A stretch of DNA of 64,000 nucleotides from Escherichia coli (GTDB taxonomy: Bacteria; Pseudomonadota; Gammaproteobacteria; Enterobacterales; Enterobacteriaceae), in NCBI RefSeq assembly GCF_030013205.1, contig NZ_CP122648.1. One strand, written 5' to 3'. Numbering within the stretch: the first letter of the stretch is position 1; the number at the start of each line of letters is the position of its first letter. The notes under the pieces were generated by a model. It ran no database searches, was not told the origin of the DNA, and saw nothing but the letters and a program-made list of their open reading frames with translations. The position numbers and the translations under genes are program-made. Below, one piece after another: positions 19,364 through 20,226 of the stretch.

Positions 19364-20226
19364 ATGATGAAAAATATTCTCGCTATCCAGTCTCACGTTG
19401 TTTATGGTCATGCGGGTAACAGTGCGGCAGAGTTTCCGATGCGCCGCCTGGGCGCGAACGTCTGGCCGCTGAACACCGTTCAATTTTCTAATCACACCCA
19501 ATACGGCAAATGGACTGGCTGCGTGATGCCGCCCAGCCATTTAACCGAAATTGTGCAAGGCATTGCCGCCATTGATAAATTACACACCTGTGATGCCGTA
19601 TTAAGTGGCTATCTGGGTTCGGCGGAGCAGGGGGAACATATTCTCGGTATCGTTCGTCAGGTGAAAGCAGCAAATCCGCAGGCGAAATATTTTGCGATCC
19701 GGTAATGGGTCATCCGGAAAAAGGCTGTATCGTTGCACCGGGTGTCGCAGAGTTTCATGTGCGTCACGGTTTGCCTGCCAGCGATATCATTGCGCCGAAT
19801 CTGGTTGAGCTGGAGATACTCTGTGAGCATCCGGTAAATAACGTCGAAGAAGCGGTTCTGGCAGCGCGCGAACTCATTGCGCAAGGGCCACAAATTGTGT
19901 TGGTTAAACACCTGGCGCGGGCTGGCTACAGCCGTGACCGTTTTGAAATGCTGCTGGTTACCGCCGATGAAGCCTGGCATATCAGCCGTCCGCTGGTGGA
20001 TTTTGGTATGCGCCAGCCGGTAGGTGTTGGTGATGTGACGAGCGGTTTACTGCTGGTGAAACTGCTTCAGGGGGCAACGCTGCAGGAGGCCCTGGAACAT
20101 GTGACCGCTGCAGTATACGAAATCATGGTGACCACCAAAGCAATGCAGGAATATGAGCTGCAAGTGGTTGCTGCTCAGGATCGTATTGCCAAACCAGAAC
20201 ATTATTTCAGCGCAACAAAGCTCTGA
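19364..20226 (+). pseudogene. pdxY: pyridoxal kinase PdxY, interrupted by a -1 frameshift (ORFs 19364..19705 and 19705..20226)
   Basis: 113-aa and 173-aa ORFs together match PdxY; frames meet at the T4 run at ~19690..19693. Confidence 0.85.

Follow-up and report, generated by a model that had tools for sequence, protein, structure and literature searches.

A single-base deletion inherited in a porcine lineage of Escherichia coli splits the pyridoxal kinase gene pdxY

In the window, by which we mean the whole 64,000-nucleotide stretch of E. coli DNA analyzed here, the pyridoxal kinase gene pdxY is divided between two open reading frames. A reading made from the sequence alone had attributed this to the loss of one base in a run of T, and had proposed that vitamin B6 salvage would then depend on PdxK. 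The locus therefore raises the question of whether the break is a mutation that these bacteria inherit or a fault of the assembly, and whether a working kinase could still be made from it. Our analysis indicates that pdxY is very probably a clonally inherited loss-of-function pseudogene of the porcine O139:H1 (ST1) lineage, with salvage proceeding through PdxK. The lesion, its inheritance, its restriction to one lineage and the integrity of pdxK and pdxH are shown by the data.

The identity of the gene becomes clear once its frame is restored. Inserting one T gives an 864-nt open reading frame and a 287-aa product that aligns end-to-end with the E. coli PdxY crystal structure in PDB entry 1TD2 (286/287 identical, E-value 7e-193) and over its full length with a further E. 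coli PdxY crystal structure, 1VI9. The only difference from 1TD2 is A157P, a residue common to intact alleles such as that of the swine strain CFSAN018748, and the repaired DNA equals the intact pdxY of this strain at every base. Thus, a single deletion separates the allele in the window from a functional allele that already exists. Against the NCBIfam PdxY equivalog NF004398, which has a curated cut-off of 292 bits, the repaired protein scores 484.8 bits, whereas the N-terminal fragment (210.6 bits, profile positions 2-110 only) and the C-terminal fragment (242.2 bits, profile positions 115-286) both fall short of the cut-off; the locus therefore descends from pdxY, but the products it now encodes are not members of the family. 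The gene also lies at the orthologous position for pdxY, downstream of pdxH-tyrS and convergent with gstA, within an order (anmK, mliC, pdxH, tyrS, pdxY, then convergent gstA and dtpA) that is canonical according to the annotation of a near-identical record. The family score of the repaired protein and the usual pdxH-tyrS-pdxY order together bear out the sequence-only reading in naming the gene pdxY.

The lesion itself can be read directly from bases 19680-19710 of the window (AGGCGAAATATTTTGCGATCCGGTAATGGGT), where the run of T is TTTT. The codons at 19679-19710 are CAG GCG AAA TAT TTT GCG ATC CGG TAA TGG GT, and the ATG of the C-terminal frame overlaps the premature stop as TAATG at 19703-19707 (Table 1). 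Compared with T5 alleles, the pdxY of the window shows a single gap, with no second indel and no compensating change. The earlier proposal that one deleted base, T4 for T5, splits the gene is thus confirmed both by reading and by alignment with T5 alleles, and the two frames of PdxY that it described, the second beginning MGHPEKGC, are both present. The intact junction that it had inferred, FCDPVMGH, occurs in intact PdxY as aligned with 1TD2. Neither of the refuting conditions named with that reading, T5 upon resequencing or intact orthologs without this junction, speaks against it. It had also proposed comparison with the pdxY of other E. coli as a check, and an alignment of the window and four other T4 genomes with the T5 genome CFSAN018748 contains one gap column.

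Table 1. Features of the pdxH-tyrS-pdxY cluster in the window
Feature	Position	Strand	Description and basis
pdxH (PNP/PMP oxidase), intact; other B6 gene of the cluster	17246..17902	+	WP_001282319.1, no pseudogene flag; window identical to ETEC4079 here
tyrS, intact upstream gene of the cluster	18031..19305	+	ETEC4079 annotation and ORF
Terminator-like hairpin with T tail, tyrS-pdxY gap	19320..19345	+	11-pair stem, consensus scan; pattern match only
pdxY pseudogene (pyridoxal kinase PdxY)	19364..20226	+	863 nt, compared with 864 in intact alleles
N-terminal remnant ORF	19364..19705	+	113 aa: 110 native residues and AIR, then premature TAA at 19703-19705
T4 run, site of one-base deletion (T5 in intact alleles)	19690..19693	+	Direct reading and alignment
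C-terminal remnant ORF	19705..20226	+	173 aa, starts MGHPEKGC; native residues M115-L287

Whether the missing base belongs to the organism can be judged from its distribution. The 863-base pdxY query (19364-20226) finds a match in 5,425 of 5,426 complete E. coli genomes, and in 16 of these, all of pig or wild-boar origin, identity over the query is 100%. An exact T4 81-mer centred on the site is present in 17 of the 5,426 genomes, namely those 16 and K_EC180; all 17 come from swine or wild boar, in France, Belgium, Japan and South Korea. The French genomes are those of wild boar strain W13-16 and pig strain P15-25, the only two of the 17 with a named serotype, which is O139:H1 in both. These two strains were sequenced by PacBio RSII and belong to O139:H1 ST1 (PMC8798679). 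The Japanese genomes are EC556, EC571 and EC581, and the Belgian ones are eleven ETEC-numbered strains, with the country inspected for two of them. The exact T5 82-mer is found in 199 genomes, CFSAN018748 included, and the best non-T4 matches to the 81-mer probe span 82 bases, which corresponds to T5.

Draft assemblies extend this picture. In a collection of 15 billion proteins, the 112-aa form of the N-terminal fragment, which begins at the second ATG as in the PGAP start, was found on 128 contigs and in 180 index blocks. Contigs of 20-50 kb, a length that we take to be typical of short-read drafts, account for the majority of these blocks. One draft contig (L010) matches the window at 100% identity across 3.3 kb, and three draft assemblies (L016, L018 and L019) carry the same allele, 100% identical over pdxY. 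Five further T4 carriers (L011, L013, L014, L017 and L029) are long-contig, error-rich assemblies with many frameshifts in tyrS, gstA and dtpA; taken alone, a T4 call from any of these cannot be trusted. Independent assemblies of related strains repeat the lesion and other strains lack it, the pattern by which an inherited pseudogene is recognized. Because 17 independent complete genomes as well as draft assemblies carry T4, we conclude that it is a real, inherited mutation and not an assembly error.

A second homopolymer in the window offers a useful contrast. The window is collinear with the genome of ETEC4079 (NZ_CP122643.1, from about 2,431,727), and over 64 kb the two differ only at a homopolymer in lhr and at one SNP. 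In lhr (minus strand, 1549-6165), the run at about 2594-2600 is T7 in the window and T8 in ETEC4079, and T7 shifts the frame of lhr in the window such that the first stop follows residue 1225 of 1538. In all, 18 unrelated complete genomes, with cattle, humans, pigs and food as their sources, share the exact lhr T7 context, and no strain of the pdxY-T4 set does; this is the sporadic pattern expected of a homopolymer error or a hypermutable tract. Since lhr T7 is scattered in this way whereas pdxY T4 stays within a single group of swine strains, we read pdxY T4 as inherited. The SNP, at 27762 in rsxC, is A in the window and T in ETEC4079, and is the sole substitution in 64 kb. The window also holds an IS1 copy (30715-31412) between blr and ydgJ, whose transposase has an annotated programmed frameshift. 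Among the near-identical complete genomes listed, ETEC4079 alone matches across this IS1 in one piece, and P15-25, W13-16 and EC581 match the window at 97% coverage in two pieces.

We propose that an ancestor of the porcine edema-disease lineage O139:H1 (ST1) lost one T from the T5 run at pdxY codons 109-111 and passed the loss on clonally. Translation from the native start would now read K108-Y109-F110, continue with A-I-R and end at the premature TAA. The resulting 113-aa product would keep the vitamer-binding N-terminal part but lack D112 and C122 as well as the ATP site and the catalytic-base motif GVGD. Should ribosomes re-initiate at the overlapping ATG (19705), they would add no more than the complementary portion of 173 aa. 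The intact PdxK would then have to phosphorylate pyridoxal, pyridoxine and pyridoxamine, with PdxH intact as well.

This proposal draws on what is known of the active site in pyridoxal (PL) kinases. The residues that bind the vitamer are N-terminal (Ser12, Thr47 and Tyr84 in the human enzyme; PMC3412620), and the catalytic base is human Asp235, within a GTGD/GVGD motif (PMC3412620 and our alignment). In the window, GVGD lies in the C-terminal fragment, where its D224 aligns with the GTGD of PdxK and with human Asp235. The same fragment contains C122, which corresponds to the Cys121 of PdxY reported to bind pyridoxal covalently (PMC11995724). The vitamer-binding residues and the G-x-G-D motif are thus not found on one polypeptide. 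At the break, the native residues C111-D112-P113-V114 are lost and AIR stands in their place; DPV is conserved between PdxY and PdxK in our alignment. Because the vitamer-binding half is separated from the half with the ATP site and the catalytic base, this division of active-site elements suggests that neither fragment could be a kinase alone. Further decay of the gene is nearly absent, with 16 genomes identical over pdxY and a second deletion in K_EC180 alone, which fits a recent event and gives no positive sign of relaxed selection. The K_EC180 change, a one-base deletion of G5 to G4 at 19626-19630 in addition to T4, may be either further pseudogene decay or an assembly error.

Little else at the locus would be disturbed by the deletion. 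Because its cluster ends with pdxY and gstA lies in the convergent orientation, no effect on a downstream gene is expected. We take pdxY to belong to the pdxH-tyrS operon. The terminator-like hairpin of Table 1 lies directly 3' of tyrS, about 20 bases before the pdxY start, and pdxY expression presumably depends on read-through past it or on an unrecognized promoter. Between the convergent pdxY and gstA, at 20240-20261, there is a perfect 8-bp inverted repeat (GGCCCACA ... TGTGGGCC) with a 6-base loop that may form a shared terminator stem; the terminator scan did not flag this repeat, which has no T run.

The other salvage kinase, PdxK, is available as a backup. In the near-identical ETEC4079 genome, pdxK is intact, encoding 283 aa with no pseudogene flag, and this finding, together with the intact pdxH, supports the suggestion of the sequence-only reading that salvage depends on PdxK. 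PdxK phosphorylates PL as well (PMC10202323). Knockouts of pdxY have been reported to grow like the wild type in LB (PMC11995724) and, on minimal medium with PL, not to be sensitive to 4-deoxypyridoxine; PdxY becomes important chiefly under inhibition of PdxK or a block in de novo synthesis (PMC10202323). These laboratory data fit a small cost of PdxY loss. From the split active site and the presence of this backup, we infer that PdxY enzyme activity has been lost at little cost to fitness.

Inactivation of pdxY is not peculiar to this lineage. A lookup with the C-terminal fragment showed the gene broken by independent events in other E. coli assemblies, some of which are metagenomic or noisy. 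The same T5 to T4 deletion is present in a K-12-like allele with 16 SNPs within pdxY (L012, L022, L023 and L030), and over 3.3 kb L012 differs from the window by 59 mismatches and no gaps; the deletion would have arisen at least twice, in different allelic backgrounds. With the K-12-like T4 context taken from L012 as the query, we found no exact match in the 5,426 complete genomes. One other allele (L025) has lost a neighbouring G, equivalent to 19682, which gives a product ending ...PQRNIFAIR before a stop, and others have a stop at codon 73 (L015, L020 and L021) or at codon 89 (L024, L026 and L028). In L027, pdxY begins at nt 239 and adjoins a Mom-family gene, which suggests insertion of a Mu-like prophage, and in L030 it begins at nt 65 and adjoins an integrase-family (rve) ORF, which suggests insertion of an IS. 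Such scattered null alleles fit a dispensable gene, in agreement with the dispensability of PdxY in the laboratory.

Several other explanations of the split gene deserve consideration, beginning with the possibility that the genome is truly T5 and that the window's assembly dropped a base from the homopolymer. This would agree with the T7/T8 difference from ETEC4079 in lhr and with the noisy long-read character of several public T4 assemblies (L011, L013 and L014), which have many frameshifts. Nevertheless, 17 complete genomes, collected in at least four countries, carry T4 as one allele, and none of the other complete genomes with this context has it; it recurs in drafts identical to the window, whether over 3.3 kb (L010) or over pdxY (L016, L018 and L019); the same context is T5 in CFSAN018748 and 198 other genomes; and a run of 4 or 5 bases is short for systematic homopolymer error. 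A sequencing or assembly error is thus extremely improbable. An inherited deletion might still leave the gene functional if leaky or programmed -1 frameshifting on U_UUU restored a useful level of wild-type PdxY. The tRNA-Phe on UUU at 19691-19693 can re-pair perfectly with UUU at 19690-19692, after which UGC GAU CCG GUA AUG would be read as CDPVM, the exact native sequence, and E. coli ribosomes are known to slip in the P site at a low level on such tetramers. Yet the site lacks an X_XXY_YYZ heptamer, as UAU, the codon before it, could not re-pair after a -1 shift; nothing resembling a Shine-Dalgarno stimulator precedes U_UUU; and the 80 nt that follow form no more stable a fold than shuffled sequences do (z = -1.19, with 25/200 shuffles as good). 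The in-frame A-site codon, GCG, is common, which also counts against frameshifting. Moreover, the split state is derived and belongs to one clone only, as the 199 exact context matches outside the clone are T5. We expect full-length PdxY to arise by slippage in trace amounts at most, and consider it very unlikely that frameshifting keeps the gene functional. Programmed or stimulated frameshifting as a designed feature was rejected, given a tetramer only, no significant downstream structure and no conservation.

A related idea is that termination and re-initiation at TAATG yield the products of both ORFs, and that the two pieces join to form an active split kinase. The overlap of stop and start would allow this, and the fragments together cover PdxY profile positions 2-110 and 115-286. 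Set against it are the replacement of C111-V114 by AIR, which removes the conserved DPV; the lack of any Shine-Dalgarno-like sequence upstream of the second ORF, where direct reading finds the bases TTTGCGATCCGGTA; and the further deletion upstream in the pdxY of K_EC180. In this family, whose ribokinase-type fold is a single domain, the break probably also falls in a segment of the conserved core. Re-initiation at TAATG is conceivable, but fragment complementation across a break in the conserved core is unlikely, and an active split kinase is hardly credible overall. Phase variation was rejected as well, the run being only 4-5 bases long and 17/17 related genomes being T4 with no revertant. 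The remaining alternative, adaptive loss, would change the reason for the inactivation and not its mechanism: PdxY inactivation would have been selected here and repeatedly elsewhere. The independent null alleles in other backgrounds, including the same T5 to T4 deletion in the K-12-like allele, are in keeping with this idea, as is a PdxY role outside salvage suggested by one study (PMC11995724). However, with very many public E. coli assemblies, numerous independent null alleles are to be expected in any gene that is dispensable; only 17/5,426 complete genomes have the T4 lesion; no phenotype favouring loss is known; and a knockout makes no difference in LB and tends, if anything, towards greater sensitivity to some compounds (PMC10202323, PMC11995724). 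Several null alleles are the expectation for a dispensable gene and not evidence of selection, and we consider adaptive loss unlikely. We also consider it improbable that pdxY is a recurrent target of natural inactivation, whether because loss is advantageous in some gut niches or because PdxY has the role outside B6 salvage that chemical proteomics suggested (PMC11995724). If this were true, the ST1 clone would be a ready-made natural knockout for testing the non-salvage role.

The reading that we prefer, an inherited pseudogene with little consequence, is in line with existing annotation. PGAP marks pdxY as a "frameshifted" pseudogene in 5/5 T4 records inspected (W13-16, EC556, ETEC1748, K_EC180 and ETEC4079) and annotates the pdxY of CFSAN018748 as intact. 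In the ETEC4079 record, the pseudogene is placed at the window-equivalent of 19367-20226 and is the only one flagged within the span of the window. In the literature on pdxY pseudogenes, as far as titles and abstracts go, we found no paper on the T4 lesion; a search for strain ETEC4079 returned no paper, and the word "pseudogene" does not appear in the paper on wild-boar O139:H1 (PMC8798679). The lesion is thus already known, in that it is flagged in RefSeq, and is a case of ordinary gene decay.

Our findings matter little beyond correct annotation, and they do carry some practical consequences. Models of metabolism in the O139:H1 E. coli of porcine edema disease should leave out PdxY and assign all B6 vitamer kinase activity to PdxK. 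It follows as a prediction that mutation of pdxK in this lineage would abolish pyridoxal salvage. In K-12, the ability of pyridoxal to bypass 4-deoxypyridoxine inhibition of PdxK has been attributed to PdxY (PMC10202323), and we predict that this bypass would no longer operate in the lineage. The T4 allele is also a simple clonal marker of the lineage.

Comparison with known systems helps to place the locus. Intact E. coli PdxY, pyridoxal kinase 2 (1TD2/1VI9; NF004398; ribokinase superfamily PF00294), agrees with the repaired product of the window at all but one residue of 1TD2 and is encoded in the same gene order, but in the window the frame breaks at codon 111, so that only fragments of 113 and 173 aa are possible. 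E. coli PdxK, the paralogous PL/PN/PM salvage kinase, shares the fold and the DPV and G(T/V)GD motifs of PdxY at 29% identity; it differs in being encoded at another locus, in its broader substrate range and in being intact in this lineage. The programmed -1 frameshifts of E. coli dnaX and IS1 insAB' resemble pdxY in having a T/A run at the frame junction, whereas pdxY has neither a heptameric slippery site nor a stimulator, and its split state is confined to one clone. The closest counterparts are the "frameshifted" pdxY genes of porcine STEC/ETEC in RefSeq (W13-16, EC556, ETEC1748 and ETEC4079, with P15-25 by sequence identity), which have the same T4 lesion and from which the pdxY of the window differs in nothing of substance.
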